Shown here piece after piece: positions 2,174 through 32,587 of a stretch of 40,230 bases of DNA. Under the pieces are notes generated by a model. That model was not told where the DNA came from, did no database searches, and worked only from the letters and a program-made list of their open reading frames with translations. The position numbers and the translations under genes were made by a program. Location of the stretch: the sequence record DRR378314_2561. One strand, given 5' to 3'. How positions within the stretch are numbered: the stretch's first letter is position 1; every line of letters begins with the position of its first letter.

Positions 2174-2217
2174 CAATATTAAGGTATGCCGGGCTTTTTT
2201 ACCATGACCTGAATCAT
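2174..2217 (-). promoter_or_regulatory. Regulon box + -7 element for usp-usp
   Basis: ATGACCTGAATCAT 2204-2217; 22-nt spacer; TAATATTG on minus strand 2174-2181. Confidence 0.75.
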
Positions 2218-2257
2218 TTCACAAAGTTCCCCTGATAACCTGATTACGGAACTTTTG

Positions 2258-2301
2258 CTGATCTTGCTCATATTCCAGATCGGTATTTTGTTTGTAATTT
2301 G
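2258..2301 (+). promoter_or_regulatory. Regulon box + -7 element for ABC exporter operon
   Basis: CTGATCTTGCTCAT 2258-2271 (weakest box); 22 nt; GTAATTTG 2294-2301. Confidence 0.6.
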
Positions 2302-2324
2302 AACATTATCCCATGCCAAGTACC

Positions 2325-3410
2325 ATGAAATACTTTTTGCTGTTTTCTATCTTGTCGTCCCTCCTATTCGCATGCACCGATCCCAAGGAAAAAATATATC
2401 CGGAGAAACTGCCGATGACCGAATCCGTATATGCTTCCGCCACGGTTCAACCCGATAGCCTTTATCAAGTTTACTCGGTGGCCATGGGCATTTTGGACAA
2501 GATTTGGGTGGAAGAAGGCGATAAGGTGGCCAAGGGCGATCGTATTCTACAGATTATTAACACCTCACCTGAGCTAAACAAAGAAAATGCTAAACTGGCA
2601 TTGCAACTGGCCCAAGAGAACTATTCTGGTACTTCGGGAATTCTGAACAGCATAGCGGACGAAATCCAAGCTGCCAAGCTCCAACAGAAAAATGATTCCA
2701 TCAATTATTTCCGTCAAAAAAAACTCTGGGACCAAAACATTGGTTCAAAATTGGAATACGACAACAAAGAATTGGCCTATGAACTTTCCCAAAATCATCT
2801 GGGATTGCTCAAAAAGAAATATGAACAGACAGAAAATGAGCTCGAAACCCATCTGAGGCAAGCTGAAAACAATTATAAAACCTCGCTCACAACGTCGAAT
2901 GATTTCACCATAACCAGTAAAATAGACGGCAAGGTATATGCCCTATACAAAAATCCCGGCGAAATTGTGAATACATTGGAACCTGTGGCGGTAGTGGGAA
3001 GAAGCGATAAATTTGTTGTGGAGTTATTGGTAGATGAGGTGGACATTGTTAAACTCAGCATTGGGCAAAAAGTGTTCATTACACTTGATTCCTACGGTCC
3101 CAAAGTTTTTGAAGGGACCTTGGACAAAATCTATCCCAGAAAAGATGAGCGTTCCCAAACGTTCAAAGTAGAAGCCTTGTTCAATAAGCCTCCAAAAACC
3201 TTGTATCCCGGCCTATCAGGAGAAGGCAATATCATCATTGCCGAAAAAAAGGAAACCCTGACCATCCCCAAGACATATCTGGTCGATGAATCAACAGTAA
3301 TCACGGACGAGGGAGAAACTAAGGTTACCACTGGCCTGCAGAACATGGTATTGGTAGAGATTTTGGACGGCATCAACGAAAACACGGCAATATACAAACC
3401 AGAACCATGA
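2325..3410 (+). CDS. Periplasmic adaptor (HlyD/MacA-type membrane fusion lipoprotein)
   Basis: Lipobox LLFAC, lipoyl-like VEEGDKVAKGD, coiled-coil hairpin, IxSKIDGKV. Start 2325 or 2313. Confidence 0.88.
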   Translation: MKYFLLFSILSSLLFACTDPKEKIYPEKLPMTESVYASATVQPDSLYQVYSVAMGILDKIWVEEGDKVAKGDRILQIINTSPELNKENAKLALQLAQENYSGTSGILNSIADEIQAAKLQQKNDSINYFRQKKLWDQNIGSKLEYDNKELAYELSQNHLGLLKKKYEQTENELETHLRQAENNYKTSLTTSNDFTITSKIDGKVYALYKNPGEIVNTLEPVAVVGRSDKFVVELLVDEVDIVKLSIGQKVFITLDSYGPKVFEGTLDKIYPRKDERSQTFKVEALFNKPPKTLYPGLSGEGNIIIAEKKETLTIPKTYLVDESTVITDEGETKVTTGLQNMVLVEILDGINENTAIYKPEP

Positions 3411-4669
3411 TCAATTGGAATGTAATATTGGACATTGCCAAGACCCATCTTCTCACCAAGATGAAATCCACCGTTACTGCTACGCTAGGGGTTACTTTTG
3501 GGATTGGGGCCTATATTACACTGGTCAGTTTCATGACAGGGCTAAACACCATGCTGGATGATCTGGTGTTGAACCAAACTCCCCACATCCACATCTATAA
3601 TGAGATCCGTCCCTCTCCTGAACAACCCATTGCCCTTTATGATGATTTCAAGAACGCATTCAACGTGGTGCACTCCATAAAACCAAAACAAAGCCAGAAA
3701 AAGATACACAATGCGCTCCCCATTCTAAATTATCTGAAAAAACAGCCAAACGTGGATGGAGCCACACCGCAACTCAGGGCACAGATCTTTTATCTATCAG
3801 GTTCCATGGAGCTGGGCGGTAATCTGATTGGGGTGGATATCATGGAGGAAGTCCGTTTGTCCAACCTACGGGACAATATTGTGCAAGGTTCCCCTGAAAC
3901 CTTGAAGAACAATGATAATGGCATTCTCTTGGGGGCAGGATTGGCCGATAAAATGTCCTTGTCCGTTGGAGACAGGGTACAGATAAGTACGGTATCCGGT
4001 AGTATTTTTCCTTTGAAGATAGTGGGCATCTATCAAAGTGGCATTGCAGAAATTGACAATGTACAAAGCTTTGTCAATCTCAAGACCGTCCAGCGCATTT
4101 TAGGGGAAGCAGAGAATTATGTCACGGATATCAATATCAAATTGTTGGACATAACCGAGGCACAATCGATGGCAGAACAATTGGAAAAACAGTTCAATGT
4201 CAAGGCTATGGGAATCAACGAGGCCAATGCTCAGTTTGAAACGGGATCGAACATCAGGAACCTTATTACCTATGCAGTTTCCATTACGCTGCTTATTGTT
4301 GCCGGCTTTGGCATTTATAACATATTGAACATGCTGATCTATGAAAAAATGAAAGACATTGCCATACTCAAAGCAACTGGTTTTTCAGGAACGGATGTAC
4401 AGCTCATCTTTATGAGTCAGGCCATAATCATAGGATTGGTCGGTGGTTTTTTGGGGCTAATGGTCGGATTTGTACTTTCAAAAATAATTGACCAGACTCC
4501 TTTTGAAACTGAGGCGTTGCCCACCATCACCACGTACCCTGTAAACTATGACCCGACCTATTATATCATTGGGATCACTTTTGCCCTTTTATCAACCTTT
4601 GTTGCAGGCTATTTGCCTTCCAATAGGGCCAAAAATATCGATCCTGTAAAAATCATCAGAGGAACTTAA
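3407..4669 (+). CDS. ABC transporter permease (MacB/LolE/FtsX family)
   Basis: N-terminal TM, large periplasmic domain, EKMKDIAILKATG motif, three C-terminal TMs, RAKNIDPV; ATGA overlap with upstream gene. Confidence 0.9.
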   Translation: MINWNVILDIAKTHLLTKMKSTVTATLGVTFGIGAYITLVSFMTGLNTMLDDLVLNQTPHIHIYNEIRPSPEQPIALYDDFKNAFNVVHSIKPKQSQKKIHNALPILNYLKKQPNVDGATPQLRAQIFYLSGSMELGGNLIGVDIMEEVRLSNLRDNIVQGSPETLKNNDNGILLGAGLADKMSLSVGDRVQISTVSGSIFPLKIVGIYQSGIAEIDNVQSFVNLKTVQRILGEAENYVTDINIKLLDITEAQSMAEQLEKQFNVKAMGINEANAQFETGSNIRNLITYAVSITLLIVAGFGIYNILNMLIYEKMKDIAILKATGFSGTDVQLIFMSQAIIIGLVGGFLGLMVGFVLSKIIDQTPFETEALPTITTYPVNYDPTYYIIGITFALLSTFVAGYLPSNRAKNIDPVKIIRGT

Positions 4670-4677
4670 TCTAGCCT

Positions 4678-5355
4678 ATGAACCTTGTCCTTGAAACCAA
4701 AAATATCAACAAGCACTTCCATAAACCCAAGGATTTTCATGTTCTGAAAGATGTTTCCTTTAGGGTCAAAAAAGGGGAGTTTGTTTCCATTATGGGCAAA
4801 TCTGGATCTGGAAAATCCACTTTGTTGTATGTTCTTTCCACTATGGATACCGATTATAGCGGGGAATTGTATTTGGGCAAAGAATTGATTACTGGGAAAA
4901 CCCAACGTGAACTCTCCCGAATCCGTAATAAAAATATCGGTTTTGTGTTCCAATTCCACTATTTATTGTCCGAATTCAGTGTTCTGGAAAATGTGATGTT
5001 ACCCGCAAAAAAACTTGGCGAAAAATCCCCCGCCGAGATTGAACGCGATGCCCTGCATAAACTTGAAATGCTCCATATAGGTCATTTGGCCCACCAGCGG
5101 GCCTCTCGGATTTCTGGAGGGGAAAAGCAGCGCGTGGCCATTGCCCGAGCGTTGATCAACAACCCTACGATCTTGATGGGCGATGAACCCACTGGAAACT
5201 TGGACAGCCAAAACTCTGAAAACGTATTCAATATCTTCAAAAAACTCAAGGAGGAACAAGGACTTTCGCTCTTGGTGGTAACCCATGATGAGGATTTTGC
5301 CAAAAGAACCGATCGCATTATTCAATTGGAAGACGGAAGAATTGTGGCTCAATAA
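4678..5355 (+). CDS. ABC transporter ATP-binding protein (LolD/MacB-like)
   Basis: GKSGSGKST, IGFVFQFHYLL, ISGGEKQRVAIARAL, GDEPTGNLD, VVTHD. Confidence 0.95.
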   Translation: MNLVLETKNINKHFHKPKDFHVLKDVSFRVKKGEFVSIMGKSGSGKSTLLYVLSTMDTDYSGELYLGKELITGKTQRELSRIRNKNIGFVFQFHYLLSEFSVLENVMLPAKKLGEKSPAEIERDALHKLEMLHIGHLAHQRASRISGGEKQRVAIARALINNPTILMGDEPTGNLDSQNSENVFNIFKKLKEEQGLSLLVVTHDEDFAKRTDRIIQLEDGRIVAQ

Positions 5356-6200
5356 AATATGGACTTGTTTAAACTGAGCAAGGGAAGTTGGGTCTTGGAC
5401 ATCATCTGCTTTACAAAATCCTTGTGGACAAAGGAGGACGCAGTACTTTTTCTGTTCCGCTCCAACATGACCAATACATCCATTTCCCCACGTTCGGCAT
5501 ACTGCGTCAGGGCATCAGAAACATTGTCGGAATGAATCAGTTCAAACCCCAATTTTTCATACTTGACCTTTTGGAGCAGTATTTTTTGGAACCACTGCAT
5601 CTGTTCCTCACCTTTTTCCCAATCCAAGGTGTTTACATGAACTATTTTAACAAAAGCTTGATATGGACGTGCCATGCTTTTAACGAGCCAATCAATGGCA
5701 TGTATATCCGTTTCTTCAAAATCGGAAGCATAAGTTATACGCGCTATTGAAAATTTATCCGCAGTTGGTGGCACCATCAAGAAAGGACAGGGACTTTTTT
5801 TAATCATTCCCATGGTGTTGCTGCCTATTATCATATCCTTGAGTGCACTTCTGCCTTTTGTGCCCATAATGATCATTGAAGCGTCAAACTCGGTAACAGC
5901 GTCAATGATGGCATCGTTTATTATGGCATTTTCCTTTACTATTAACCGGAGCTTTGTGCTGTTTTTAAGTTGTCCCAGACGCTCTTTATAGAAATCGACC
6001 AATTTTTTGCGATTTTCTTCGAATGCTTCTTTTTCCATCTTGGCGTATGTTATGCTCAAAGGGGTCAGCAGCGCCACATTCAGATCAAACACATGGAGCA
6101 CCAACAACCTTGATTCGAGTTTTTTGCTCAGGGCATTGGCCATTTTTAGGGCCGCTTCGGAATTTTTGGAGCAATCTGTGGCGCAGAGTATGGTTCTCAT
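5349..6200 (-). CDS. Universal stress protein (tandem USP domains)
   Basis: MRTILCATDCS, IIMGTKGRS..IGSNT, CPFLMVP. Confidence 0.92.
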   Translation of the reverse strand: MRTILCATDCSKNSEAALKMANALSKKLESRLLVLHVFDLNVALLTPLSITYAKMEKEAFEENRKKLVDFYKERLGQLKNSTKLRLIVKENAIINDAIIDAVTEFDASMIIMGTKGRSALKDMIIGSNTMGMIKKSPCPFLMVPPTADKFSIARITYASDFEETDIHAIDWLVKSMARPYQAFVKIVHVNTLDWEKGEEQMQWFQKILLQKVKYEKLGFELIHSDNVSDALTQYAERGEMDVLVMLERNRKSTASSFVHKDFVKQMMSKTQLPLLSLNKSIFY

Positions 6201-6211
6201 CGTTTTTTATG

Positions 6212-6255
6212 TGAAACTATTGGTTTTTGATAGATGTGGGAATGATTTTGGTCAG
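6212..6255 (-). promoter_or_regulatory. Regulon box + -7 element for usp3
   Basis: ATGATTTTGGTCAG 6242-6255; 22 nt; TAGTTTCA on minus strand 6212-6219. Confidence 0.72.
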
Positions 6256-6331
6256 CTATGTCCAGTTGAGTATCCTAGTTTCTGTAAATCAAAAACATGG
6301 GTTCTCTATTAACCCTTTAAACGAGTCTTGG

Positions 6332-6375
6332 ATGATCCACATCATTTCACTTCGAGGGTATTGTTTTTAATTTAG
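6332..6375 (+). promoter_or_regulatory. Regulon box + -7 element for hsp20
   Basis: ATGATCCACATCAT 6332-6345; 22 nt; TAATTTAG 6368-6375. Confidence 0.82.
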
Positions 6376-6425
6376 TTCCACTTAGTTGTAAAATGATTTT
6401 ATTTAACCTAAAAAACAATTGCGTT

Positions 6426-6890
6426 ATGTCATTAGTAAAATTTAGAAACAGACCTTTTGGGAACCTCATCGGTTCCGATTTTTTCGATTTTGACGATTTT
6501 TTTGAAGATCGTGTATGGGACACCAATCTGTTGAAGGACAGTTTTTGGAACGGAAAAACCACGATTCCGGCCATGAACATCAAAGAAACCGATGATGACT
6601 ATGAAATTGAGTTAGCCGCACCGGGCTTTAACAAGAAAGATTTTAAAATCACCATTGAAAATGGATGTTTGAACATTTCTGCTGAAAAATCGACCTCAGA
6701 GGAAGAGAAAAAGGCGAATTACACCCGAAGGGAGTTCAGCCACAATTCCTTTGAACGTTCCCTTCAATTGCCAGACTTCATCAAAGATGATAACGTCAAC
6801 GCAAAATACAATGATGGTATACTGCGGTTTAAACTGGTAAAAAAAGAAGAGGCCAAAAAAAAGAAACCCAAGGTGATCCAAGTCTCATGA
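6426..6890 (+). CDS. Hsp20/alpha-crystallin small heat shock protein
   Basis: PAMNIKETDDDYEIELAAPG, RREFSHNSFERS, AKYNDGIL. Start at MSLVKF (6426) preferred over 6393. Confidence 0.95.
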   Translation: MSLVKFRNRPFGNLIGSDFFDFDDFFEDRVWDTNLLKDSFWNGKTTIPAMNIKETDDDYEIELAAPGFNKKDFKITIENGCLNISAEKSTSEEEKKANYTRREFSHNSFERSLQLPDFIKDDNVNAKYNDGILRFKLVKKEEAKKKKPKVIQVS

Positions 6891-6908
6891 ATTGAACTTT
6901 TAGCCCAG

Positions 6909-6964
6909 TCCCCATTACAGTTTCCGCAATCTTTTTCATGGAATTCCTGTGATGGGGATTTTTT
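6909..6964 (+). terminator. Probable intrinsic terminator/attenuator after hsp20
   Basis: TCCCCATTACAG (6909-6920) pairs with CTGTGATGGGGA (6947-6958), followed by T6; large loop. Confidence 0.55.
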
Positions 6965-7009
6965 GTTCCTTTTTTACCAAAAAACACATAAACTTACCTT
7001 ACAAATACC

Positions 7010-9759: not shown

Positions 9760-9803
9760 ATGATTTATGTCATGTCAAGGTAAAAAGTCATATATTATAT
9801 TTG
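9760..9803 (+). promoter_or_regulatory. Regulon box + -7 element for the kinase-regulator operon (autoregulation)
   Basis: ATGATTTATGTCAT 9760-9773; 22 nt; perfect TATATTTG 9796-9803. Confidence 0.85.
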
Positions 9804-9948: not shown

Positions 9949-12519
9949 ATGAAACGGCAAAATTCCAAAGAAGAAAAAGCTTCCTCCCTTTTGTTTGAGG
10001 GTGACCGAAAGCTACGGACGTTGGTGGAAAACCTCCCGGGCATTGTATTTCGCTGTAAGAACGATTCGGACAGAACCATGCAGTTCATCAGCAATGAGTG
10101 CAAATGCGTCACAGGATATTGGCCCGAACAATTTTGCAAGTCAGATGGAATCGCTTGGGGAAGTCTGATTCACCCCATGGACAAGGATGATGTATGGAAC
10201 GCGGTACAATTGGCCTTGGGCAAAAACGAAAAGTTTCAGTTGAAATACCGGATAATAGATAAAGAGGGGAAGATTCACTGGATCAGTGAAACCGGAATTG
10301 CAGTGGAAAAAAAAGAAGGCACGGCCTATCTGGAAGGATATATGCAAGATATCACCACCCAAATCATGGGCGGCAACATCAATGTTATCAAGGAGAGGGC
10401 CTTGGATGAGGTAGGGAATGGAATCATCATAGCAAATGCGCAACTCAAACAATTTCCCATTATCCATGTCAACCAGGCTTTTGAAAGAATAACCGGTTAC
10501 TCCAAGGAAGAAGTCGTTGGAAAAAATTGTAATTTTCTTCAAAGTGATGACCGCCAGCAAAAGGAAATCCAAATCATTCGAGATGCACTCGCGACCCAAT
10601 CTCCTTGCCATGTGGAGATACGAAATTACGGGAAAGATGGGACCATGTTCTGGAATGAACTATCTATTACCCCAGTACGGAACCTCAATGGGGAAACCAC
10701 ACATTTTATAGGTATTCAAAACGACATTACGGAAAGAAAGAACCTAGAGTTTTTAAGAAAAGGCAAGAATGACATTTTTGAAATGATCATAAAAAAAAGG
10801 CCCCTGCCCGAAATTTTTGACCGTGTTCAAGAAGTGCTGGAGCAACAAATACGTATAGGTACCGTGGCAATCACTCTATATGATGATGCCAAACAAATGC
10901 CCAAGAGGGTTTCTGGAAGTAAAACACACCCTGCAATTGGCAAGGTCATGGACCAAATTTTAGCTATATCGGATTCTTGTCCCTGTATACGGGCCATACA
11001 GTCCAAAAAAAGAGCAAGGGTCGCCAATATTCTGGACGAACCTTCATGGTCCAAGTACCGGTCCGAATTGACCAAGGCTGGTTTCAAATCCATCAGTTCC
11101 TCCCCTATTTTAGATGCTGATAATCACATTCTAGCCGTTTTATCCGCTTTTTACCCTTCTGAACACCATCCTTACTTTGAAAAGGAAGAATTGGTCGATG
11201 AGATGGTCGGTCTTATCGGTTTGGCCATTGAACAAAAGAAGATTCGCGAAAAATTGCAAACGAATCAAAAGCATTTGGAGACTTATTCCAAAGGGTTGGA
11301 AAAACAAGTTGAGCAACGCAACAAAGACCTGAAAAAGATTCTGGATGAATTGACGGTAACAAATTTTGAGCTTATTGAGCAAGTTACAGATGCCAACGCT
11401 GCCAAGACAAGGGCAGAAATACAGGAAAGCATGCTTTTGGCCATCACCCAAAATTTCCCAAAAGGTGCTATTATACTGGTGGACAAGCAAATGCAAATCA
11501 ATTTTATAAAGGGTGCAGAGTTGAAACATCTCCAAGATCAGGTTTATTCAAAAAAAGCATCAACCATAATGGAATTTGATGGATTGTCAACAAGCAGTAA
11601 ACGCCTTTTGAAATATCACATGATCCAGGCCCTAAAAGGCAAACATCTAAGTTTTGAAATCGAGTATAAGAACAGTAATTATATAATCAACACCACTCCC
11701 ATATTGTCTAAAGATGGTGAAGTTACCCATGCAGTACTCGTTCTATTAAATATATCAGAGAGAAAACGAAACGAGGAGAGAATCCTTAAAAACCTAAAAA
11801 AGGAAAAGGAACTAAGTGAGCTCAAGACCAGATTCATCAGTACTGCTTCCCATGAGTTCAGGACACCTCTGAGCATTATTCTGTCTTCAACTTCATTGAT
11901 AGAAAAACTCAACGGGCCTGAAAAAACAGAAAGGCGTTTGTTCCATTTGGAAAGAATAAAAACCAATGTGGAACATCTGGTAAACATACTGAACGATTTT
12001 CTATCGCTCACCAAATTAGAGGAAGGGGAAACCAAACCCACCCCTGAATTTTTTGACTTATTACAATTGTCAAAATCCTTGATCCAGCAAATGGAAGTGA
12101 ATACAAAAAACGGTCAGAGCATTGTTTTGGAGTGCTACCATTCAAAGATGGAGATTTACCTGGATCCCAAACTGGTGCAACACATACTGCTGAACCTCAT
12201 AAGCAATGCCATTAAATATTCTGATGAAAACCAACCCATTATCCTAAGGATTGAGGAAGAATCGCAAAAGGTAAAAATCCAGGTGATCGATCAGGGTATA
12301 GGAATACCTGAAGAGGACAAACCGTATCTTTTTCGACGGTTCTTCAGGGCGAGAAATAGCATTAATGTTCAAGGGACCGGGCTTGGGCTGCACATTGTAA
12401 AATCATATACGGAATTAATGAGAGGAGAACTATGGTATGAAAGTAAGGAGAACCATGGTACCTCTTTCGAATTAAAGTTTCCTAAACACTATAAAAATGA
12501 AAAAAGTATTGGTAATTGA
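9949..12519 (+). CDS. Cytoplasmic sensor histidine kinase: PAS - LOV-type PAS - GAF - coiled coil - PAS-like - HisKA - HATPase
   Basis: No TM segment; GKNCNFLQ..RNYGKDGTMFWN..FIGIQND; H-box ASHEFRTPL; N-box NLISNAIKYS; DQGIGI; GTGLGL. Confidence 0.93.
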   Translation: MKRQNSKEEKASSLLFEGDRKLRTLVENLPGIVFRCKNDSDRTMQFISNECKCVTGYWPEQFCKSDGIAWGSLIHPMDKDDVWNAVQLALGKNEKFQLKYRIIDKEGKIHWISETGIAVEKKEGTAYLEGYMQDITTQIMGGNINVIKERALDEVGNGIIIANAQLKQFPIIHVNQAFERITGYSKEEVVGKNCNFLQSDDRQQKEIQIIRDALATQSPCHVEIRNYGKDGTMFWNELSITPVRNLNGETTHFIGIQNDITERKNLEFLRKGKNDIFEMIIKKRPLPEIFDRVQEVLEQQIRIGTVAITLYDDAKQMPKRVSGSKTHPAIGKVMDQILAISDSCPCIRAIQSKKRARVANILDEPSWSKYRSELTKAGFKSISSSPILDADNHILAVLSAFYPSEHHPYFEKEELVDEMVGLIGLAIEQKKIREKLQTNQKHLETYSKGLEKQVEQRNKDLKKILDELTVTNFELIEQVTDANAAKTRAEIQESMLLAITQNFPKGAIILVDKQMQINFIKGAELKHLQDQVYSKKASTIMEFDGLSTSSKRLLKYHMIQALKGKHLSFEIEYKNSNYIINTTPILSKDGEVTHAVLVLLNISERKRNEERILKNLKKEKELSELKTRFISTASHEFRTPLSIILSSTSLIEKLNGPEKTERRLFHLERIKTNVEHLVNILNDFLSLTKLEEGETKPTPEFFDLLQLSKSLIQQMEVNTKNGQSIVLECYHSKMEIYLDPKLVQHILLNLISNAIKYSDENQPIILRIEEESQKVKIQVIDQGIGIPEEDKPYLFRRFFRARNSINVQGTGLGLHIVKSYTELMRGELWYESKENHGTSFELKFPKHYKNEKSIGN

Positions 12520-13576
12520 AGACAACAGGGAGGTCCGCGAGAACACGGTGGAAATTCTTGAGTTGGCCAACTATAACGTAATAGCTGCGGCCAATGGCAG
12601 GGCAGGCATCCAAATGGCCATGGAACATCTACCCGATATCATCATCAGCGACATAGTAATGCCCGAAGCAAATGGATATACCGTACTGGAAGTCTTGAGC
12701 CAAAACAGCGATACAGCAAACATTCCCTTTATTTTTTTAAGCGCCAAAGACAAGAAGGAAGATATAAGAATGGGGATGAGCCTTGGAGCCGATGATTATA
12801 TTTATAAACCTTATCGGTCACAGGAACTATTGGATGCCGTGGAAATGCGGATAAAGAAACATAACTTTATCCAGCAAAAGTTTTCAAAGACCCCAGTCGG
12901 CATCAACCATTTTTTTAAGGAGGTATCCGAATATCTGGGAAAAGAACTCATTTCCAAAGAAAGGGAACCCCAACTTTTTAAGGATAGGGAGAGAATCTAT
13001 CAAGAAGGGAACGCTGCACATTATCTCTATTTTATAGAAGATGGAAACATAAAGACTTTTAGGGGCACGGAAAGCGGCAAAGAAATGATTACCGGACTAT
13101 ATGGGCCCGGGGACTTTGTAGGGCAACTATCTTTGTTGGGAAGTGGCGGCACTTATCTAGAAACGGCCATCGTAATGGAACATGCCAAAGTACTCGGCAT
13201 TCCCAAGGAAGATTTTATTCACCTGGTATACCAGGACAAGGAAGTGGCGAATAAATTCCTTGGCATTATCTCCAACAATATGATCGACCTACAAGGAAAA
13301 TTGATAGACATCGCCTATTCATCTGTGGATCGGCGGGCAGCAAAAGCCCTGCTGGAACTTCACGAAAAGGGCATCCTTAAAGATGAGCATCATAAAGGTG
13401 TGGATATGCTTCGGGAAGATTTTGCCTCTTTGATCGGTGTAGCCAAGGAAACCGCCATCAGGACACTTACCAAATTCAGGGAAATTGGTCTTGTAGGTAC
13501 TGATAAAAAGAGGAAACTTACCATATTGGATATTGACCGTTTAAAACGTATCGCAGATTTTGAAGGTATGCTTTGA
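12497..13576 (+). CDS. Response regulator with receiver + Crp/Fnr-type effector and HTH domain
   Basis: VIED, PDIIISD(52), FLSAK, YIYKP; Crp beta-roll IYQEG..LYFIEDGNIK..GDFVG; HTH REDFASLIGVAKETAIRTL; overlaps kinase stop. Confidence 0.93.
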   Translation: MKKVLVIEDNREVRENTVEILELANYNVIAAANGRAGIQMAMEHLPDIIISDIVMPEANGYTVLEVLSQNSDTANIPFIFLSAKDKKEDIRMGMSLGADDYIYKPYRSQELLDAVEMRIKKHNFIQQKFSKTPVGINHFFKEVSEYLGKELISKEREPQLFKDRERIYQEGNAAHYLYFIEDGNIKTFRGTESGKEMITGLYGPGDFVGQLSLLGSGGTYLETAIVMEHAKVLGIPKEDFIHLVYQDKEVANKFLGIISNNMIDLQGKLIDIAYSSVDRRAAKALLELHEKGILKDEHHKGVDMLREDFASLIGVAKETAIRTLTKFREIGLVGTDKKRKLTILDIDRLKRIADFEGML

Positions 13577-14633: not shown

Positions 14634-14634
14634 A

Positions 14635-16205: not shown

Positions 16206-16249
16206 CAAAAATAGGTTGGCAAAACCGGTGCTGAAATGACGGTTATCAT
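16206..16249 (-). promoter_or_regulatory. Regulon box + -7 element for mlaEFD
   Basis: ATGACGGTTATCAT 16236-16249; 22 nt; perfect TATTTTTG on minus strand 16206-16213. Confidence 0.82.
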
Positions 16250-16790: not shown

Positions 16791-16864
16791 CAAAACTATC
16801 CTATCCCATGCTTTCATGGAATGATCTGGATCATTTTTCTGGGACTCTCCTTTACATTACTTTG
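16791..16864. promoter_or_regulatory. Single box serving two divergent promoters
   Basis: ATGATCTGGATCAT 16821-16834; TAGTTTTG (minus, 16791-16798) and TTACTTTG (plus, 16857-16864), both 22 nt away. Confidence 0.82.
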
Positions 16865-16884: not shown

Positions 16885-17265
16885 ATGAAGAGAATTTGGT
16901 CATACACAGCAATTGTCCTATTGTTTATGGCAGTGCAGGGCTGTAGTCCGGTGTTGGTTTCGCACAATTTGGCAGACCCTCCCCCACCCTGGTTTTACCC
17001 GAATAGGATCGAGACTGTTAGATATGTATATTTTCCAGAACTGAGCATTTATTATGATTTATCGGCCAGAACCTACATTTATTGGGATGGTGGGGTATGG
17101 ATAAGGAGAAAGGTATTACCGCCCCGTTACCGTACACAAGACTTGAACCGATCTCGATATGAACGCATTAGGAATTATTATGAGGACGACATTAGGCGGT
17201 ATCACGATCAGAATAATGCGGACAGAGGAAGGAGCAATAAAAGTGTTGGAAGAAGAAACAAATAA
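16885..17265 (+). CDS. Hypothetical lipoprotein
   Basis: Signal peptide ending VQGC, PPPPWF, Tyr/Trp-rich RYVYFP..YYD..YIYWDGGVW. Confidence 0.75.
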   Translation: MKRIWSYTAIVLLFMAVQGCSPVLVSHNLADPPPPWFYPNRIETVRYVYFPELSIYYDLSARTYIYWDGGVWIRRKVLPPRYRTQDLNRSRYERIRNYYEDDIRRYHDQNNADRGRSNKSVGRRNK

Positions 17266-17281
17266 GTCACAAACACCTTCT

Positions 17282-17470
17282 TCAACCATTGAAACTCCTA
17301 TTAAACCTGCGGGCTTGCAAAATTTGGTCTGCTTTGCTGCCGTCCCTGTAGATGGTGATTATTTTCAACCCATATTCCCAAATGGTCCTGTACATCTTCG
17401 AAACGGTTTCCGCTCCCGTTTCTTTGGACAGGTCTATGGTTTTGAACGTTTCTCGGGTTCTTGGGGTATT
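17282..17470 (-). pseudogene. C-terminal remnant of a class II (NrdJ/NrdZ-type) ribonucleotide reductase
   Basis: Frame between stops translates FKTIDLSKETGAETVSKMYRTIWEYGLKIITIYRDGSKADQILQ, matching the RNR C-terminal pattern SKTIN..Y..AW..GLKGITIYRDGS..QVL. Confidence 0.72.
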
Positions 17471-17553
17471 TCAACGATAGCTCTTTTTCAATCCTTGGCC
17501 AATATATCGCTTGGAGCATTTCGAAGGCCTTGCGTGTAAGTTTCATGCCATCC

Positions 17554-17580
17554 AAAATGGGAGCTGATTCTTCCCATTTT
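17554..17580. terminator. Probable bidirectional terminator between convergent genes
   Basis: AAAATGGGAG-ctgattc-TTCCCATTTT. Confidence 0.5.
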
Positions 17581-17661
17581 CTAAAATGACTTTTTTACGG
17601 AACATCTCGTGCAAACCAAATCTCCCTTTGCGAAAATCAAGTAGAAAGCCCTCGTTGGTCA

Positions 17662-18506: not shown

Positions 18507-18550
18507 TAAAAATAACGGCTGGGATATTCTTTGAAAATGATCTTCATCAT
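18507..18550 (-). promoter_or_regulatory. Regulon box + -7 element
   Basis: ATGATCTTCATCAT 18537-18550; 22 nt; TATTTTTA on minus strand 18507-18514. Confidence 0.8.
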
Positions 18551-18569
18551 ACCAAAATGGATACCTTGA

Positions 18570-18613
18570 ATGATGAACATCATTGATAGCAGTAGGCGTT
18601 TACTTTAACTTTC
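18570..18613 (+). promoter_or_regulatory. Regulon box + -7 element for hydrolase-PRTase
   Basis: ATGATGAACATCAT 18570-18583; 22 nt; TAACTTTC 18606-18613. Confidence 0.8.
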
Positions 18614-21123: not shown

Positions 21124-21167
21124 AAAATTTAGTTATTGGACGCATGGTGCACAATGATGCAGGTCAA
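21124..21167 (-). promoter_or_regulatory. Regulon box + -7 element for methyltransferase-archease
   Basis: ATGATGCAGGTCAA 21154-21167; 22 nt; TAAATTTT on minus strand 21124-21131. Confidence 0.75.
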
Positions 21168-21263: not shown

Positions 21264-21470
21264 TTATTCTTCATCTATTCCGAAAGTGACCTTGGCATTC
21301 ACACGGTACTCGGAAATTTGGTTGCTTTTTACACAAACCTGCATGTCCTTTACATAAACAGACTTGATGTTCCTCACTGTTTTTGATGTCTCCTTGACAA
21401 TGTTATTGATGGCATCCTCAAAACTCTCTTTTGAGTTTCCCATTATTTCGACGACTTTTAATACTGACAT
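21264..21470 (-). CDS. Dodecin family flavin-binding protein
   Basis: KVVEIMGNSKESFEDAI..KTVRNIKSVYVKD..EYRVNAKVTF, 68 aa. Confidence 0.9.
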   Translation of the reverse strand: MSVLKVVEIMGNSKESFEDAINNIVKETSKTVRNIKSVYVKDMQVCVKSNQISEYRVNAKVTFGIDEE

Positions 21471-22099: not shown

Positions 22100-22143
22100 C
22101 AAAACTAGTGTGGATAGGCTCTTTGCGAAATGACCCAGATCAT
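22100..22143 (-). promoter_or_regulatory. Regulon box + -7 element
   Basis: ATGACCCAGATCAT 22130-22143; 22 nt; perfect TAGTTTTG on minus strand 22100-22107. Confidence 0.85.
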
Positions 22144-22228
22144 CCTGAATCATTTTAAGTGACTCATTTAGAATCCATTGAAAACAGGGCGGTCAATGCT
22201 AAAATTTACATCCAGAGAATCCTATGGA

Positions 22229-22272
22229 CTGACCCAAATCATTGGAAAATAGTCGCTGTGCCTTGAAATTTG
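22229..22272 (+). promoter_or_regulatory. Regulon box + -7 element for ppsA
   Basis: CTGACCCAAATCAT 22229-22242; 22 nt; GAAATTTG 22265-22272. Confidence 0.75.
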
Positions 22273-24754: not shown

Positions 24755-24798
24755 ATGATCCAGATCATTTCAAAGCCAAAACAATCGCCTTAATTTAG
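24755..24798 (+). promoter_or_regulatory. Regulon box + -7 element with no credible downstream CDS
   Basis: ATGATCCAGATCAT 24755-24768; 22 nt; TAATTTAG 24791-24798. Confidence 0.82.
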
Positions 24799-27478: not shown

Positions 27479-27522
27479 TCAAGGTAGGTCAAATGCCGTT
27501 CTGTAAAAATGATTTAAATCAG
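27479..27522 (-). promoter_or_regulatory. Regulon box + -7 element for WG-SDR
   Basis: ATGATTTAAATCAG 27509-27522; 22 nt; TACCTTGA on minus strand 27479-27486. Confidence 0.72.
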
Positions 27523-28021: not shown

Positions 28022-28047
28022 GATCTTTTGCATTTAAAAATTATAGT

Positions 28048-28091
28048 TAAAAATGGTGTATAAAACGATTTCTTGAAATGACCCCCGTCAA
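28048..28091 (-). promoter_or_regulatory. Regulon box + -7 element
   Basis: ATGACCCCCGTCAA 28078-28091; 22 nt; CATTTTTA on minus strand 28048-28055. Confidence 0.65.
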
Positions 28092-28108
28092 TGGCACTAC
28101 TTGACATA

Positions 28109-28152
28109 ATGACCCAAATCATTTCCATGTGAAGGAAATAGAGGTTTCTTTG
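28109..28152 (+). promoter_or_regulatory. Regulon box + -7 element for the baeRF-like gene
   Basis: ATGACCCAAATCAT 28109-28122; 22 nt; TTTCTTTG 28145-28152. Confidence 0.78.
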
Positions 28153-28176
28153 AATTCCTATAAATTTAAATTGACC

Positions 28177-29322
28177 ATGAAAAAAGAAGATATAGAACTG
28201 TTGGCAGGAGAACATGCAGCTCCCTGTGTCTCCATTTATATGCCAACCCATAGAACAGGCGAAGCCGTTCTGAAGGGCCATGATAGACTTCTGCTCAAAA
28301 ACCTTTTGAAAGATGTGAAACGTAATCTGGCCAATCAGGAATATGACAAAAAAACAATTAGTGCCCTTGCCGCCCCTATACAAGAATTGATCGATGCCAA
28401 ACACGATTGGAACTTCAGGTCCGAAGGTCTTGTCCTTTTTATTTCCCCAGATCTTTTCATGACATTCCAACTTCCTTTAAAGTTTTCCCCTCAGACCAGT
28501 ATTTCCTCAGTATTTTACCTGGTTCCCCTAATGCCCTTTTTTGTGGATGGCGAAAACTTTATCCTCTTGACTTTGGAACTCAACGAAGTGAAGCTTTATA
28601 AGGTCGGTCGGTACAGCATTAAGGAGATTTATATTGAGGAAAAAATCCCTTCCCGGATGGAAGATCAAGTAGGTTATGACCATGAACAGAAAAATTTGCA
28701 ATTCAGAAGCCAACAGCAAGCTTATGGAGAAGCCATGTTCCATGGCCAAGGTGAGGGGAAAGAAGATAGAAAAGATGAAATCCTGACTTTTTTTAGAGGT
28801 ATTGACCGTGGATTGTCCTCCATTTTAAGTGCAGAAAATACTCCTTTGCTCCTCGCAGGGCTGGACGAGCAGATTTCAATCTATAAAAAGGCCAATTCCT
28901 ATCACAACCTCTTTGAAAAACATCTTTCATGCCATCCATCTGACCTAAGTTCGGATGAACTGCAAATAGGGGCTTGGAAGCTTTTGGAATCCCATTTTGA
29001 CCAAGAACGAAACGAAAAATTGGAGATGTTCCAGCGTTACCAAGACACGGGGAGAACCTCACAACAGATCAATGAAATTATCCCAATGGCCATTCAGGGC
29101 AGAGTGGACACGCTTTTTATCCAATATGATATGGATGTATGGGGAACCTACGACCCAACAAACAACCTTTTAAAAATAAGTCACGAACACCGGTCTCCTG
29201 CCGTACCCTTGGATAATTTGATGGTGGTAAATACTTTTCTACAGGGAGGTAAGATATACTTAATGGACAAGATGGAAATGCCCGTTCCAAGCTCGGAGTG
29301 CTGTGCCATTTTCCGTAAATGA
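28177..29322 (+). CDS. Bacterial archaeo-eukaryotic release factor-like protein (baeRF3/7-type; Balon-like)
   Basis: CVSIYMPTHRTG, GLVLF, FHGQG..FFRGIDRGL, PLLLAG, GRVDTLF, AIFR end; no GGQ; ATG 28177 lies downstream of the promoter. Confidence 0.75.
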   Translation: MKKEDIELLAGEHAAPCVSIYMPTHRTGEAVLKGHDRLLLKNLLKDVKRNLANQEYDKKTISALAAPIQELIDAKHDWNFRSEGLVLFISPDLFMTFQLPLKFSPQTSISSVFYLVPLMPFFVDGENFILLTLELNEVKLYKVGRYSIKEIYIEEKIPSRMEDQVGYDHEQKNLQFRSQQQAYGEAMFHGQGEGKEDRKDEILTFFRGIDRGLSSILSAENTPLLLAGLDEQISIYKKANSYHNLFEKHLSCHPSDLSSDELQIGAWKLLESHFDQERNEKLEMFQRYQDTGRTSQQINEIIPMAIQGRVDTLFIQYDMDVWGTYDPTNNLLKISHEHRSPAVPLDNLMVVNTFLQGGKIYLMDKMEMPVPSSECCAIFRK

Positions 29323-29465
29323 ACAAACCAATAAGAACGCACTCCCCCCCCCGTTACTTTTAGATATAGGCGGAAGATTTTCCAAAGGCTACATCAATGG
29401 ATGGAAGCCTAGATTGATAAAAACAACAGCCTTCCCAAATAGAGTCTGACAAAACCGCTGAATAT

Positions 29466-29672
29466 TCAGTGAAATATGTGTTTGATTTTTCGGTAAAGTT
29501 TAGCAAATAAAATCATGGGCAATTCACTTTTCAACATTGAAAGTCCAAGATTTTGTTGGCCCAAGGTCAGATTGAGTTTCATTTTTTCCACCTCAATTTG
29601 TCTTTTGAGCTTTAGAATTTTTAATCTTTGGTCTATATCCGAAAAAGAATGGTACCTGGCCTTCATTTTCAA
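29466..29672 (-). CDS. Small hypothetical protein (DUF6327-like)
   Basis: YHSFSDIDQRLKILKLKRQIE; overlaps upstream stop. Confidence 0.65.
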   Translation of the reverse strand: MKMKARYHSFSDIDQRLKILKLKRQIEVEKMKLNLTLGQQNLGLSMLKSELPMILFAKLYRKIKHIFH

Positions 29673-30010
29673 TCAAAATAGTATATGGAAAATCTTTTGA
29701 TCAAAGGACTGCTCAATTTATCCCTCAAAAGGGCATATAATCCAATGAGAAGCACATAGAACAACCCTACAACCACAAATCCAAGGACCATACTGTCAAA
29801 AACAACTCCCAAACCATAGGAAACGGCTATGGAAAAAAGCAACAAGGCCAAAAACAACAAAGCCGATACGATGAACCACCCCAGAATATGGTCCATGAGA
29901 CGCATCAATATCTTAAAGACCTTCAGTTCGTAGTACTCCCGTGTTTGCTCTACATAGGCATGTATGCTCTCATCTGTATCCCTCAAATTTTCCTTTAAGT
30001 CCTGAAACAT
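29669..30010 (-). CDS. Two-TM membrane protein (holin-like/YqjE-like)
   Basis: AYVEQTREYYELK followed by two hydrophobic helices. Confidence 0.75.
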   Translation of the reverse strand: MFQDLKENLRDTDESIHAYVEQTREYYELKVFKILMRLMDHILGWFIVSALLFLALLLFSIAVSYGLGVVFDSMVLGFVVVGLFYVLLIGLYALLRDKLSSPLIKRFSIYYFD

Positions 30011-30018
30011 ATCAAAAT

Positions 30019-30348
30019 CTACTTTTGTAACCGTTCATTTTTCTTTTTGAGCTCTTCCAATTTATACTCCAATGAATCTATGATATCCTCGGCCTTATAG
30101 CTCATATTGGATATCACATCTTCAAGTTTGTCTTCAATTTTCTTTCTCCTTTCATGCACACTTTGGGAGAGTTCGTCCACTGCATGGGAAGCCTTCTCGG
30201 ATATGTCATGGGTAACATCCTGGGCTTTGCGCTTAATTTTCTCCCTGGTTTCTTTTCCTTTATCCGGAGCAAAAAGTATCCCAATTCCCGCTCCAACAAT
30301 GGTCCCTGCCAATAGGGCCAAGACTATATCTCCGTTTCTGGTTGCCAT
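30019..30348 (-). CDS. YtxH domain protein
   Basis: LLAGTIVGAGIGILFAPDKGKETREKI + charged coiled coil. Confidence 0.9.
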   Translation of the reverse strand: MATRNGDIVLALLAGTIVGAGIGILFAPDKGKETREKIKRKAQDVTHDISEKASHAVDELSQSVHERRKKIEDKLEDVISNMSYKAEDIIDSLEYKLEELKKKNERLQK

Positions 30349-30374
30349 ATGATCAATTTTTATCGTTTATATTG

Positions 30375-30418
30375 TAAAAGTAGCCCAACAACCTATCATT
30401 TCTGATGATATAGATCAG
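30375..30418 (-). promoter_or_regulatory. Regulon box + -7 element for ytxH operon
   Basis: ATGATATAGATCAG 30405-30418; 22 nt; TACTTTTA on minus strand 30375-30382. Confidence 0.8.
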
Positions 30419-30524
30419 TTGTCCCGTACTTTAAAAAATATTGCAACAAAAAAGAGAGAAACCAACTCTTTATTGATAACCAACACTTTATTAAAGAATC
30501 CCATGGCCTTAAATGTTCACCAAC

Positions 30525-30568
30525 GTGACGACAATCATTTCACCAAAAATGTAAACCATGCAATTTTG
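30525..30568 (+). promoter_or_regulatory. Regulon box + -7 element
   Basis: GTGACGACAATCAT 30525-30538; 22 nt; CAATTTTG 30561-30568. Confidence 0.72.
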
Positions 30569-30609
30569 AACGAACAACCCTGACCCAATGCGGGGTAAAA
30601 ACTAAAGCC

Positions 30610-31281
30610 ATGAAAATGAATAATCGATATTTACTGTTTATTATGCTTTTCGCCCTTTGGAATTGTAAACAAAAAGTGGAGAAAGCAACACCGGAACCTG
30701 TCCCCCAAACAGTCAAAAAACAAGAAACACCAACGCCAGAACTAAAAACGATAGCACAGTTCATGGGCATGGCATCGGACTCTTTGGGCATACCAACTGA
30801 GCTGCAAAGTTGGACCATCGATAAAAATGGCAAATTGGACAGTATTGGAGTACAAAAGGCCTCACTTCTCTTCAAAAAGTTACTCACGTCGAGCAAGAGT
30901 AATCTTTATCCCATATTTGAGGCCAGAGATGGGAAAGAGGCCTTGATCGTTATGGCCAATCAGGGTTATGACGGAAATATCCGAGGGACGTTCTTGGTCG
31001 ATAAGAACACAATGGAAATCAAGAAAGCTGCCTTTGAGCATGTGGCCGAATCCGAAGGGTATGGTGCCGCTATCGCATTTTCATCATTTGAAGAACAATT
31101 TGTCGGAACCAAGGTCAATTGGGGTGAAAACACGTTTGGATTGAACCAAAACAATACAACCATAATAAAAGGGGACAAAGTGGTCGATGGCATTTCAGGT
31201 GCTACCATAACCAGTAGGCTTACGGTGGAAATGGTCAATGATGGCCTAAAAAAATACAAGCCCTTTTTCATAACAAATTAG
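30610..31281 (+). CDS. FMN-binding lipoprotein (NqrC/RnfG-like FMN_bind domain)
   Basis: Lipobox LWNC; GYDGNIRG, EHVAESEGYGA, VDGISGATITS flavinylation motif. Confidence 0.82.
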   Translation: MKMNNRYLLFIMLFALWNCKQKVEKATPEPVPQTVKKQETPTPELKTIAQFMGMASDSLGIPTELQSWTIDKNGKLDSIGVQKASLLFKKLLTSSKSNLYPIFEARDGKEALIVMANQGYDGNIRGTFLVDKNTMEIKKAAFEHVAESEGYGAAIAFSSFEEQFVGTKVNWGENTFGLNQNNTTIIKGDKVVDGISGATITSRLTVEMVNDGLKKYKPFFITN

Positions 31282-31300
31282 GTCTATCGGAGCGTGCTCG

Positions 31301-31344
31301 ATGACTCAGATCATTGTGTGATGCAAGCTGTGCAGGTAATTTTA
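31301..31344 (+). promoter_or_regulatory. Regulon box + -7 element
   Basis: ATGACTCAGATCAT 31301-31314; 22 nt; TAATTTTA 31337-31344. Confidence 0.82.
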
Positions 31345-31374
31345 CGTTCAAAACATTAACACTAATTTGACAAA

Positions 31375-31917
31375 ATGAAAATCCTTATTGTATATGGCAC
31401 AAGTGAGGGTCAGACCCGAAAAATTGCCAGGTTCATGGAAGAAGTGCTTCAAGGAGGCGATCACAAAGTGGTCATTGCAGATGCCACCGAAGAGCCTCCT
31501 TCTCCTGATGGTTTTGAGGCTGTTCTGATCGGTGCCTCGGTGCACATGCAAAAATATCAAAGTGCCGTATCCAATTATGTCATGCGCCATCTGGACATCC
31601 TCAATAAAAAGCATTCCGCATTCTTCTCGGTTTCAATGGCCATTGCATCCAACATAGAAGAAGAGCATGAAGAAATCAAAAAAATGACTTTGGATTTCTT
31701 GGAAAGAACAGGATGGAACCCAGATGAAGTACAATATTTTGCAGGAGCTTTAAAATATACCCAATACGATTATTTTAAAAAGCTCATCATGCGAATGATT
31801 GCAAAAAAAGAGGGAGGCAGCACAGATACTTGCCGTGACCATGAATATACGGATTGGAACAATGTGAAAACATTTGTCCTCAACTTTTGTACAGAAAGAG
31901 TACAATCAGCAAGGTAA
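31375..31917 (+). CDS. Flavodoxin-domain protein, HemG-like (menaquinone-dependent protoporphyrinogen oxidase family)
   Basis: ILIVYGTSEGQTRKIA, VLIGASVH, AFFSVSM, FAGALKYTQY, EYTDW. Confidence 0.85.
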   Translation: MKILIVYGTSEGQTRKIARFMEEVLQGGDHKVVIADATEEPPSPDGFEAVLIGASVHMQKYQSAVSNYVMRHLDILNKKHSAFFSVSMAIASNIEEEHEEIKKMTLDFLERTGWNPDEVQYFAGALKYTQYDYFKKLIMRMIAKKEGGSTDTCRDHEYTDWNNVKTFVLNFCTERVQSAR

Positions 31918-31962
31918 GTTCAAGAACGTTATTTTTTATCAATTCATTTTAAAACTAATGTC

Positions 31963-32418
31963 ATGGGATTCAATTTTGACCAATACACCGCAGAAGGAAA
32001 CACCTTTTTGAATGATTATGCCAAACAGATGTCCATGGAAAACGATAGGGAAAGAGCGGGCAGGATTATGACTTCAATACTTTATGCTTTGAGGGATATC
32101 ATCTCCCCCACTGAATCCATGCAGTTTATTGCCCAACTGCCCATGATTATAAAGGCCATTTACGTGAATGGATGGGCCATAGGCAAAAAAAGGACAAGGG
32201 TCAAAAATTTGAAAGATTTTATCCAGCTCGCCAAAAAACATGATGGCACTGCCGCTACCAATGACTTTGGATACGATGATGATGCGGCGGAAGACTATAT
32301 CCAAACAACTTTTCTGTTCTTAAAAAACTATGTGTCCCAGGGCGAACTGGAGGATATCAGGGATGTATTGCCGAAAGGCTTAAAAAATATCATCCCATCG
32401 CATATAATCAATGAATAA
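31963..32418 (+). CDS. DUF2267 family protein (copy 2)
   Basis: Clear paralogue of 27569-28021 (NFDQYTAEGNTFLNDYAKQ, AQLPMIIKAIYVNGW). Confidence 0.85.
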   Translation: MGFNFDQYTAEGNTFLNDYAKQMSMENDRERAGRIMTSILYALRDIISPTESMQFIAQLPMIIKAIYVNGWAIGKKRTRVKNLKDFIQLAKKHDGTAATNDFGYDDDAAEDYIQTTFLFLKNYVSQGELEDIRDVLPKGLKNIIPSHIINE

Positions 32419-32543
32419 ACAATATGGGCTTCCGTTCACCATCGAAAAATTTGGCCTTTTCTTATTTGTAAGCTTATAGGATTGCATTGTACCAAAATGT
32501 TGTTTTTGGATAGACCATAGGTTTTGTCCGTGGCCAAGTGTAA

Positions 32544-32587
32544 ATGATCAATATCATTTCCTATTTTGCCAAAGTAATCTAGTTTTG
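32544..32587 (+). promoter_or_regulatory. Regulon box + -7 element for ftsH
   Basis: ATGATCAATATCAT 32544-32557; 22 nt; perfect TAGTTTTG 32580-32587. Confidence 0.85.

Follow-up and report, generated by a model that had tools for sequence, protein, structure and literature searches.

A Crp/Fnr-type box 22 nt from promoter octamers in a stress gene cluster of a marine flavobacterium encoding a LOV kinase and a receiver-Crp regulator

The stretch of DNA analysed here, 40,230 nucleotides (nt) from sequence record DRR378314_2561 and hereafter called the window, carries an accessory stress and dormancy gene cluster (396-34579, the island) in which a 14-bp palindrome recurs at a fixed distance from a promoter-like octamer. 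The host is a marine flavobacterium; close relatives of the island's regulator come from Muricauda, Allomuricauda and Flagellimonas. Two overlapping genes on the plus strand encode a soluble sensor kinase of 856 amino acids (aa) with the domain order PAS-LOV-GAF-coiled coil-PAS-HisKA-HATPase and His635 (9949-12519), and a receiver-cNMP-HTH_Crp regulator of 359 aa, P0001 (12497-13576). P0001 matches PF00072 (E 1e-25), and PF00027 and PF13545 above cut-off. Its beta-roll and Crp-type helix-turn-helix, with an ExxxR recognition helix (VAKETAIR, at about 13439-13462), are those of a Crp/Fnr transcription factor, and its receiver with Asp52, together with the overlap with the kinase gene, marks it as a response regulator, with phosphotransfer from the kinase as a prediction. 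The protein has no cysteine, which rules out an Fe-S sensor of the FNR type.

A sequence-only reading of the window had described 20 palindromes, 19 of them fitting TGAY-N4-RTCA, and 21 promoters with a -7-like octamer exactly 22 nt away. We found all 20 14-mers in place; 19 match the pattern, the exception being the 14-mer at 2258, CTGATCTTGCTCAT. A blind regular-expression search of the whole window returned 21 exact matches, namely the 19 already listed and two more (25768 and 37195) that have no octamer at 22 nt. Since 19 of the 21 blind matches have the octamer, the selection of boxes was not circular. Over the full window, Markov simulations with 200 runs per order predicted 3.2-3.8 matches (maximum 9-11), and in the 4.8 kb of non-coding DNA 18 matches were observed against 0.4-0.6 expected (1000 runs, maximum 4). 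When the gap between the half-sites was set to any value from 0 to 11 except 4, only 1-6 matches were obtained. The octamer was scored against the Bacteroidota -7 consensus TAnnTTTG, which we took from the part of PMC9723704 consulted. At 22 nt it was present on 5, 17 and 23 of the 40 box sides with 0, up to 1 and up to 2 mismatches, and at any other spacing from 10 to 35 nt on at most 0, 2 and 7. The 21 promoters reported earlier (5 perfect, 12 with one mismatch, 4 with two) were thus reproduced, two further two-mismatch sides (22229, minus, and 27509, plus) lying beyond them, and the intergenic enrichment and spacing peak that the sequence-only reading had expected of a genome scan were obtained within the window, the peak at 22 nt only.

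The same geometry was recovered in other loci. In 13 related loci a single-base peak at 22 nt accounted for 99 of 254 box sides (at most 6 at other spacings), and in 20 loci from other genera for 123 of 296 (at most 8). The promoter of the kinase-regulator operon (9760-9803, plus strand), which combines a box with a perfect octamer, has an exact box and a perfect octamer in 12 of 14 related loci and a near-box in one, while the spacer has diverged. As the earlier reading had stated, no box with octamer was found in the window upstream of the sulfatase and haem-protein genes that flank the cluster. The nearest genome, G001, matches the window at 97.9% identity and was examined by pattern searches and fetched stretches. 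Every composite site in the 80 kb checked on its matching contig lies between 91.6 and 122.0 kb; three boxes fall outside these limits, all without an octamer.

By Pfam and NCBIfam the cargo of the cluster comprises three Usp proteins, Hsp20, a cation P-type ATPase, an HlyD/FtsX/ABC exporter, MlaDEF, PpsA, dodecin, FtsH, a hydrolase, a phosphoribosyltransferase, archease, a methyltransferase, DUF302, SDR, two DUF2267 proteins, a baeRF protein, YtxH, a flavin mononucleotide (FMN)-binding protein and a HemG-like protein. At the left end, box 2204 lies 22 nt from the octamer TAATATTG in the predicted usp-usp promoter (2174-2217, minus), next to the degenerate box of the exporter operon, with a two-mismatch octamer (2258-2301, plus). 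A further usp gene is served by box 6242 and a two-mismatch octamer (6212-6255, minus), and hsp20 and the P-type ATPase by a box with a one-mismatch octamer (6332-6375, plus). Beyond the regulator, box 16236 with a perfect octamer precedes mlaE-mlaF-mlaD (16206-16249, minus), and a single box, 16821, serves two divergent promoters of hypothetical genes of 128 and 126 aa (16791-16864, both strands). Boxes 18537 (minus) and 18570 (plus) are divergent (18507-18613), with the hydrolase and phosphoribosyltransferase genes on the plus side. Box 21154 with its octamer precedes the methyltransferase-archease pair (21124-21167, minus); boxes 22130 (minus, a hypothetical gene of 169 aa and then dodecin) and 22229 (plus, ppsA) share the interval 22100-22272. 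A box with octamer at 24755-24798 (plus) is followed by about 540 nt lacking a convincing open reading frame (ORF) and then by the DUF302 gene. The WG-repeat protein and SDR genes lie behind box 27509 with a two-mismatch octamer (27479-27522, minus), a DUF2267 gene behind box 28078 (minus) and the baeRF-family gene behind box 28109 (plus; both in 28048-28152), the YtxH operon behind box 30405 (minus) and the FMN-binding protein gene behind box 30525 (plus; both in 30375-30568). A box with octamer at 31301-31344 (plus) precedes genes for a hemG-like flavodoxin and DUF2267, and one with a perfect octamer at 32544-32587 (plus) precedes ftsH, the cluster's final gene. Usp, alpha-crystallin, cation ATPase and protease genes, the cargo typical of the lxa and DosR systems discussed below, thus stand here under one repeated box.

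Some details of this region deserve mention. Box 16236 and octamer 28109 lie inside the longest ORFs, whose true starts are likely the downstream ATGs. The back-to-back promoters at 16791-16864, 18507-18613 and 28048-28152 use either one box for both directions or two boxes 31-33 nt apart. The dodecin gene (21264-21470, minus strand, PF07311), which encodes a flavin-storage protein of fewer than 70 aa, lies downstream of a boxed promoter. The baeRF-family protein matched a ribosome hibernation factor model below cut-off. The segment 24803-25340, behind the well-formed box and octamer at 24755, may represent an extended leader, a small RNA or what is left of a gene. At 17159-17660 a family-less ORF of 126 aa overlaps the preceding gene; in its place four related loci (L003-L006) have a gene of 570-580 aa on the opposite strand, and the window segment may for this reason be a deletion remnant.

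Island-type regulator genes turned up in 17 of the 91 genomes of the genus and in 23 of the 301 of the family, so the cluster is accessory. No integrase was seen among the annotated ORFs of the window and no G+C step was detected; tRNAs and repeats were not scanned. Island-type ppsA occurred in 9 of the 91 genus genomes, that is in 9 of the 17 carriers versus 0 of the 74 others, within about 27 kb of the regulator gene.

The element proved to extend well beyond the island. With up to one mismatch, the composite pattern occurred 73 times in G001 compared with 8 times for the reversed control, 17 sites being on the island and 56 elsewhere. The regulon is therefore not confined to the island, and an island-specific regulon was rejected; of the claim that the regulon is written into the island, the sites themselves stand, and the restriction does not. 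In the fetched stretches, boxed genes off the island were the gene of an FNR-like protein, ccoI, the ccoNO operon, hemN, dps, cydA, ompW, a hibernation factor gene, ppdK, the pyruvate kinase gene, several usp genes and a second kinase/receiver-Crp pair (the core pair). These genome-wide targets are classic low-oxygen genes. Among solved structures, DosP and FixL are the best relatives of the N-terminal PAS domain of the core kinase, and the heme His aligns. In a survey of 221 Bacteroidota, an excess of at least 10 composite sites over the control was found in 4 of 5 genomes with both an FNR-like protein and a receiver-Crp fusion, 19 of 26 with the fusion only, 14 of 24 with the FNR-like protein only and 10 of 166 with neither, at thresholds of our choosing and with an FNR cut-off (E<=1e-40) set after the list had been viewed. 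The element is thus enriched across aerobic Bacteroidota, including genomes where no receiver-Crp protein was found. As 9-22 candidates were scored per genome in the Bacteroidota and genus surveys and 6 in the family survey, a regulator that was not found is not thereby absent. Four genomes (G015, G020, G173 and G167) combine a strong excess with neither regulator above threshold and may hold a more distant family member.

Mapped start sites and hypoxia data are available for Flavobacterium psychrophilum (PMC9723704), whose Table S2 (supplement 3) gives sequences from -50 to +10; the results that follow concern the rows we looked up. The ccoI and cytochrome c551/552 promoters carry the box at -48 to -35 and the ccoS-ccoNO promoter at -47 to -34, in each case 22 nt before the octamer, with box centres at -41.5 or -40.5 from the mapped starts. 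After 1 h without oxygen, log2 values rose to 13.6/13.7 versus 8.4/8.6 for ccoI (+5.2), 14.8/14.5 versus 10.9/10.7 for cytochrome c551/552 (+3.8) and 15.0/14.9 versus 9.8/10.1 for ccoS-ccoNO (+5.0), whereas fnr fell to 9.6/10.5 versus 11.0/11.8 (-1.3). One box is common to the divergent fnr and ccoI promoters (T_1477/T_1478): it is centred at -41.5 for ccoI, which is induced, and at -28.5 (-35 to -22) for fnr, which is reduced, a drop of the kind expected for autorepression. Five promoters whose listed sequences begin with no more than a half-site changed by at most 0.8 log2. The hemN gene also rose without oxygen (11.8/11.6 versus 8.6/8.7), and no start-site row for it was found; nor did other rows looked up by name or prefix contain further full boxes. 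These data, which come from another genus, support reading the box as an activator site that acts from about -41.5 and as a mark of low-oxygen control, and they agree with the class II activator position assigned to it by the sequence-only reading.

Which protein acts on the island boxes is a narrower question. The recognition helices in G001 are VAKETAIR in the island receiver-Crp protein, IATESLIR in the core one and TATESAIR in the FNR-like protein, which lies beside ccoI and has a CxxC motif and a later Cys. All three share the motif G[TIV]A[TK]E[ST]xIR, so attribution of the boxes to the product of 12497-13576 is not unique; the two other HTH_Crp matches in G001 were one lacking the helix motif and one in a region with a DtxR-type gene. 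The FNR/FixK consensus is TTGAT-N4-ATCAA. In G001, boxes at FNR/cbb3 loci tend to TGAYA-N2-TRTCA (the A..T type), with A in 13 of 16 half-sites. None of the 20 window boxes is of this type; 16 of the 20 lack A/T at both inner positions, and A occupies 4 of 38 half-sites. Seven Flavobacteriaceae with only the FNR-like protein had 34 A-type versus 15 non-A boxes, and three with only the receiver-Crp protein 9 versus 22. The three boxed and induced F. psychrophilum promoters are all of the A..T type in the rows consulted (PMC9723704). The flavour of the window boxes would thus be receiver-Crp-like, which argues against FNR. Two side observations concern FNR loci: the spacing count in related loci had a minor peak at 8-9 nt there, and L014 9564-10253 (minus) encodes a flavobacterial FNR-like protein with an N-terminal CxxC and a single later Cys at the expected site.

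A quick tree placed the island-type regulators in one clade of 14 (SH-aLRT, the Shimodaira-Hasegawa-like approximate likelihood ratio test, 99), 38% identical to the core copy; one locus (L156) had no regulator row, and five receiver-Crp rows had no kinase within 1.6 kb. In the family set the 23 matches to the clade outside G001, 20 of which were fetched, were assigned by E-value and not by tree. In G270 no second receiver-Crp gene was found, and of the 9 non-A boxes there, 7 are no further than about 45 kb from the island-type gene; in G293, likewise, no core copy was found and the cluster is box-rich. Box flavour, the cargo travelling with the regulator and the conserved box before its own operon make the island copy the best candidate, and we consider it probably the main activator of the island boxes. 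The earlier claim that P0001 activates the whole island is thus favoured by flavour, ppsA co-occurrence and the conserved box, but weakened by the recognition helix shared with the core receiver-Crp and FNR-like proteins.

That reading of the kinase-regulator locus had overlooked the LOV domain of the partner kinase. The second PAS domain (10390-10734, plus strand) has Bacillus subtilis YtvA as its best match in the PDB (E 3.8e-34), and its top 60 solved matches are mostly LOV proteins. Its motif GKNCNFLQ retains the adduct Cys (C194) and the equivalents of YtvA Asn61, Gln66 (Q198) and Arg79 (R211), but Arg63 is replaced by Asn (N195). Also kept are the counterparts of Asn94, Asn104 and Gln123 (N226, N236 and Q257), which have a role in flavin contact. 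YtvA Arg63 contacts the FMN phosphate, and riboflavin-loaded YtvA is still photoactive, with faster recovery, according to the part of PMC3836802 consulted. All 14 genus-set kinases beside clade regulators have the LOV domain, with the Cys in 13; Arg63 is replaced by Asn or Asp in 12, one of which has Tyr for the Cys. Among 20 loci from other genera, LOV was found in 17, with the Cys in 16 and a canonical NCRFLQ-like Cys-Arg motif in 13. The recurrence of LOV in 14 of 14 and 17 of 20 kinases indicates that its pairing with the regulator is old and conserved, and the window kinase lacks the heme input; light or flavin redox may also control the cluster through this domain. Kinases beside other receiver-Crp genes have a FixL/DosP-like heme His in 39 of 41 cases. 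A FixL type found no support for the island kinase: in the genus set, 13 of the 14 kinases gave no alignment to the heme-PAS His, and the remaining one aligned at 25% identity. A DosS type likewise found no support, the GAF domain having no DosS/DosT match; DosR itself is a regulator of LuxR type, served by heme-GAF kinases. PAS1 and GAF had no informative solved relatives, and an AlphaFold model of the kinase (predicted local distance difference test, pLDDT, 76.8; predicted template modelling score, pTM, 0.38) returned only generic multi-domain kinase matches with Foldseek.

Departures from this architecture were also seen. The orthologous kinase at L003 7450-10032 has Tyr for the LOV Cys and other LOV changes, which suggests that photochemistry was lost in that lineage. 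The kinases at L107 9775-12799 (G228), L162, L164, L173 and L174 combine a FixL-like His PAS with a canonical LOV motif beside a receiver-Crp gene and are possible dual oxygen/light sensors.

The explanation we favour, to which we give moderate confidence, is that the box is a Crp/Fnr class II operator and that the LOV kinase/receiver-Crp pair drives the island. ATGAY-N4-RTCAT would be the site of a Crp/Fnr-family dimer activating housekeeping sigma-A promoters from -41.5, a position overlapping the region expected for the -33 element, and would serve as the shared operator of a low-oxygen regulon in aerobic Bacteroidota. That regulon would usually be driven by an FNR-like protein encoded next to the cbb3 oxidase genes and by a receiver-Crp fusion paired with a FixL-like heme-PAS kinase. 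The window would then be an accessory lxa/DosR-like survival cluster plugged into that operator code with a paralogous two-component pair, whose kinase has exchanged heme-PAS for a LOV flavin sensor (plus PAS and GAF). A LOV signal, blue light or flavin redox state, would change autophosphorylation of His635, phosphate would pass to Asp52, and the phosphorylated dimer would bind the 20 boxes and recruit RNA polymerase at about 21 sigma-A promoters. Motif, spacing, conservation, domain content and co-occurrence were observed directly, as were, in another species, start-site geometry and hypoxic induction; we infer that P0001 binds the boxes and receives phosphate, that the kinase binds flavin and is photochemically active, and which sign the light effect has. 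Box 9760 would provide positive feedback on the kinase operon, and the core oxygen regulators could prime the system; because this box is among only four in the window with an FNR-like half, FNR itself may, speculatively, prime the pair. Oxygen limitation would probably reach the island promoters through the core receiver-Crp protein, and crosstalk is likely.

The alternatives differ in who reads the boxes and what the kinase senses. Chance or a compositional artefact, to which AT-rich intergenic DNA could lend itself, was rejected by the simulation and spacing controls and has negligible probability given 18 boxes against 0.4-0.6 expected, a single-base spacing peak and boxes conserved across diverged spacers. 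The FNR-like protein beside the cbb3 genes might activate every box, including those of the island: the composite element occurs in 14 of 24 FNR-only genomes, and two of the three induced F. psychrophilum promoters adjoin its FNR-like gene in the rows consulted (PMC9723704). We judge this improbable, as FNR-locus half-sites have A in 13 of 16 cases versus 4 of 38 in the window and the element is present in 19 of 26 receiver-Crp-only genomes. A more serious contender, though in our view unlikely, takes the island as an extension of the core low-oxygen regulon, activated by the core heme-PAS kinase and its receiver-Crp partner, with the island pair as a target or minor modifier. It would account for the 56 of 73 G001 sites off the island, the non-A flavour at core receiver-Crp loci, the close helices (IATESLIR and VAKETAIR), the lxa/DosR-type cargo and the core copy in 15 of 17 carriers. 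It accounts less well for the age of the island clade (38% identity to the core copy, SH-aLRT 99), for a kinase and a boxed cargo retained with the regulator in 23 of 301 family genomes, and for the G270 and G293 clusters, full of boxes though no core copy was found. It is also possible, if doubtful, that the island pair is the activator and LOV is not a photoreceptor, being a flavin redox or oxygen sensor or vestigial, with PAS and GAF carrying the signal. The replacement of Arg63 by Asn or Asp in 12 of 14 genus-set kinases and of the Cys by Tyr in one, the dormancy-like cargo, and a PAS1 and GAF without informative solved relatives are compatible with this. However, 13 of 14 genus-set kinases and 16 of 17 LOV-bearing kinases from other genera retain the Cys, 13 of those 17 have a canonical NCRFLQ-like motif, and riboflavin-loaded YtvA is photoactive (PMC3836802, in part).

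Several points weigh against the LOV kinase/receiver-Crp pair as driver of the island. The evidence on the window organism comes from its sequence, the start sites and induction being from another species, in which rows were chosen by gene name or prefix and not by a full-table scan, and one usp promoter among them rose by about 2 log2 without a box (PMC9723704, in part). The surveyed genomes include kin and are not independent, which overstates significance, and the 10 of 166 genomes with neither regulator still have the site excess. The flavour split is post hoc and confounded by spacer G+C (0.42 on the island versus 0.34). It breaks down in G219 (19 A-type, 3 non-A), and beyond the Flavobacteriaceae it does not hold in genomes with only the FNR-like protein (G027 3/9, G211 0/8, G135 0/7, G039 1/5); moreover, 15 of 17 carriers also have the core receiver-Crp gene, whose loci have the same non-A flavour, so that sequence cannot separate the two paralogues. 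The cargo resembles hypoxia or dormancy rather than photoprotection. Of the 20 clade kinases from other genera, 3 have no LOV motif and 6 a heme-type His PAS (4 alongside LOV), and Asn for Arg63 in the window and Tyr for Cys in a close orthologue may mean decay.

The system has several known counterparts. The lxa locus of Burkholderia cenocepacia, in the parts of its description consulted (PMC3721108), likewise has co-regulated Usp, alpha-crystallin, cation ATPase and ATP-dependent Zn protease genes, with regulators inside and TGA-N6-TCA at 17 intergenic points and other loci. It differs in phylum and sigma factor and in having stand-alone Anr-like CRP proteins instead of a receiver-Crp fusion; a LOV kinase was not found in those parts, and hypoxic induction is demonstrated for lxa whereas the window is known from sequence. 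Its authors liken the locus to the DosR regulon of Mycobacterium tuberculosis (PMC3721108, in part). That regulon and the window have cargo in common (Usp, alpha-crystallin and cation ATPase), and in both a two-component system would govern dormancy genes; the window regulator, in contrast, is of Crp type, and the GAF domain of its kinase has no DosS/DosT match. The FixLJ-FixK/FnrN system of Alphaproteobacteria resembles that of Bacteroidota in that a heme-PAS kinase and an FNR-type protein act redundantly on cco, cyd and hemN, with several paralogues per genome (PMC4999443, in part). In Bacteroidota, however, the receiver is fused to the Crp protein, making the cascade a single step, the box is ATGAY-N4-RTCAT, and in the island kinase LOV takes the place of heme-PAS. 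YtvA and LOV-histidine kinases (PDB 2mwg, 6ph4) share with it the LOV fold, the adduct Cys and most flavin-contact residues, Arg63 being replaced. In the hypoxia response of F. psychrophilum, strongly induced cbb3 and cytochrome c promoters share the box and its geometry with the window, but the comparison there is of hypoxia promoters and not of such an island; the main text contains neither 'Crp' nor 'FNR' (PMC9723704, main text only). PMC3590769 mentions Bacteroidetes once and contains neither 'receiver' nor 'response regulator'. In the literature searched, in which subscription journals are little covered, we found no description of the box, the receiver-Crp fusion or the LOV kinase in Bacteroidota, nor any LOV kinase coupled to a receiver-Crp activator of an FNR-like box, in line with the earlier statement that no experimental description of this regulon in Flavobacteria was known.

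Known LOV kinases feed general-stress sigma cascades. The overall logic described here is familiar from FNR, FixK and lxa; what is new is a LOV kinase that lacks the heme-PAS His and has a YtvA-like domain. We read the cluster as an lxa/DosR-like island on an undescribed low-oxygen regulon of Bacteroidota, with a probable light or redox input. More tentatively, and as a plausible reading short of an even chance, in marine Flavobacteriaceae blue light might switch a dormancy programme (Usp, Hsp20, FtsH, hibernation factor, dodecin) through a LOV-kinase/receiver-Crp pair acting on the -41.5 box of the oxygen sensors, with some relatives merging heme-oxygen and LOV-light sensing in one kinase. 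If true, light would feed straight into an FNR-like regulon, and would do so in a phylum for which the regulon itself seems undescribed. The findings also point to a one-step receiver-Crp two-component design with its sensor exchanged from heme-PAS to LOV. Together, the box, the 22 nt and the -7 octamer give a precise, testable operator-promoter rule for how aerobic Bacteroidota respond to low oxygen, and published start-site and expression data back it. Since few activators have been characterised in this phylum, the combination could serve as a ready part for inducible expression. If the LOV domain is photoactive, light would be linked to dormancy in abundant marine heterotrophs.

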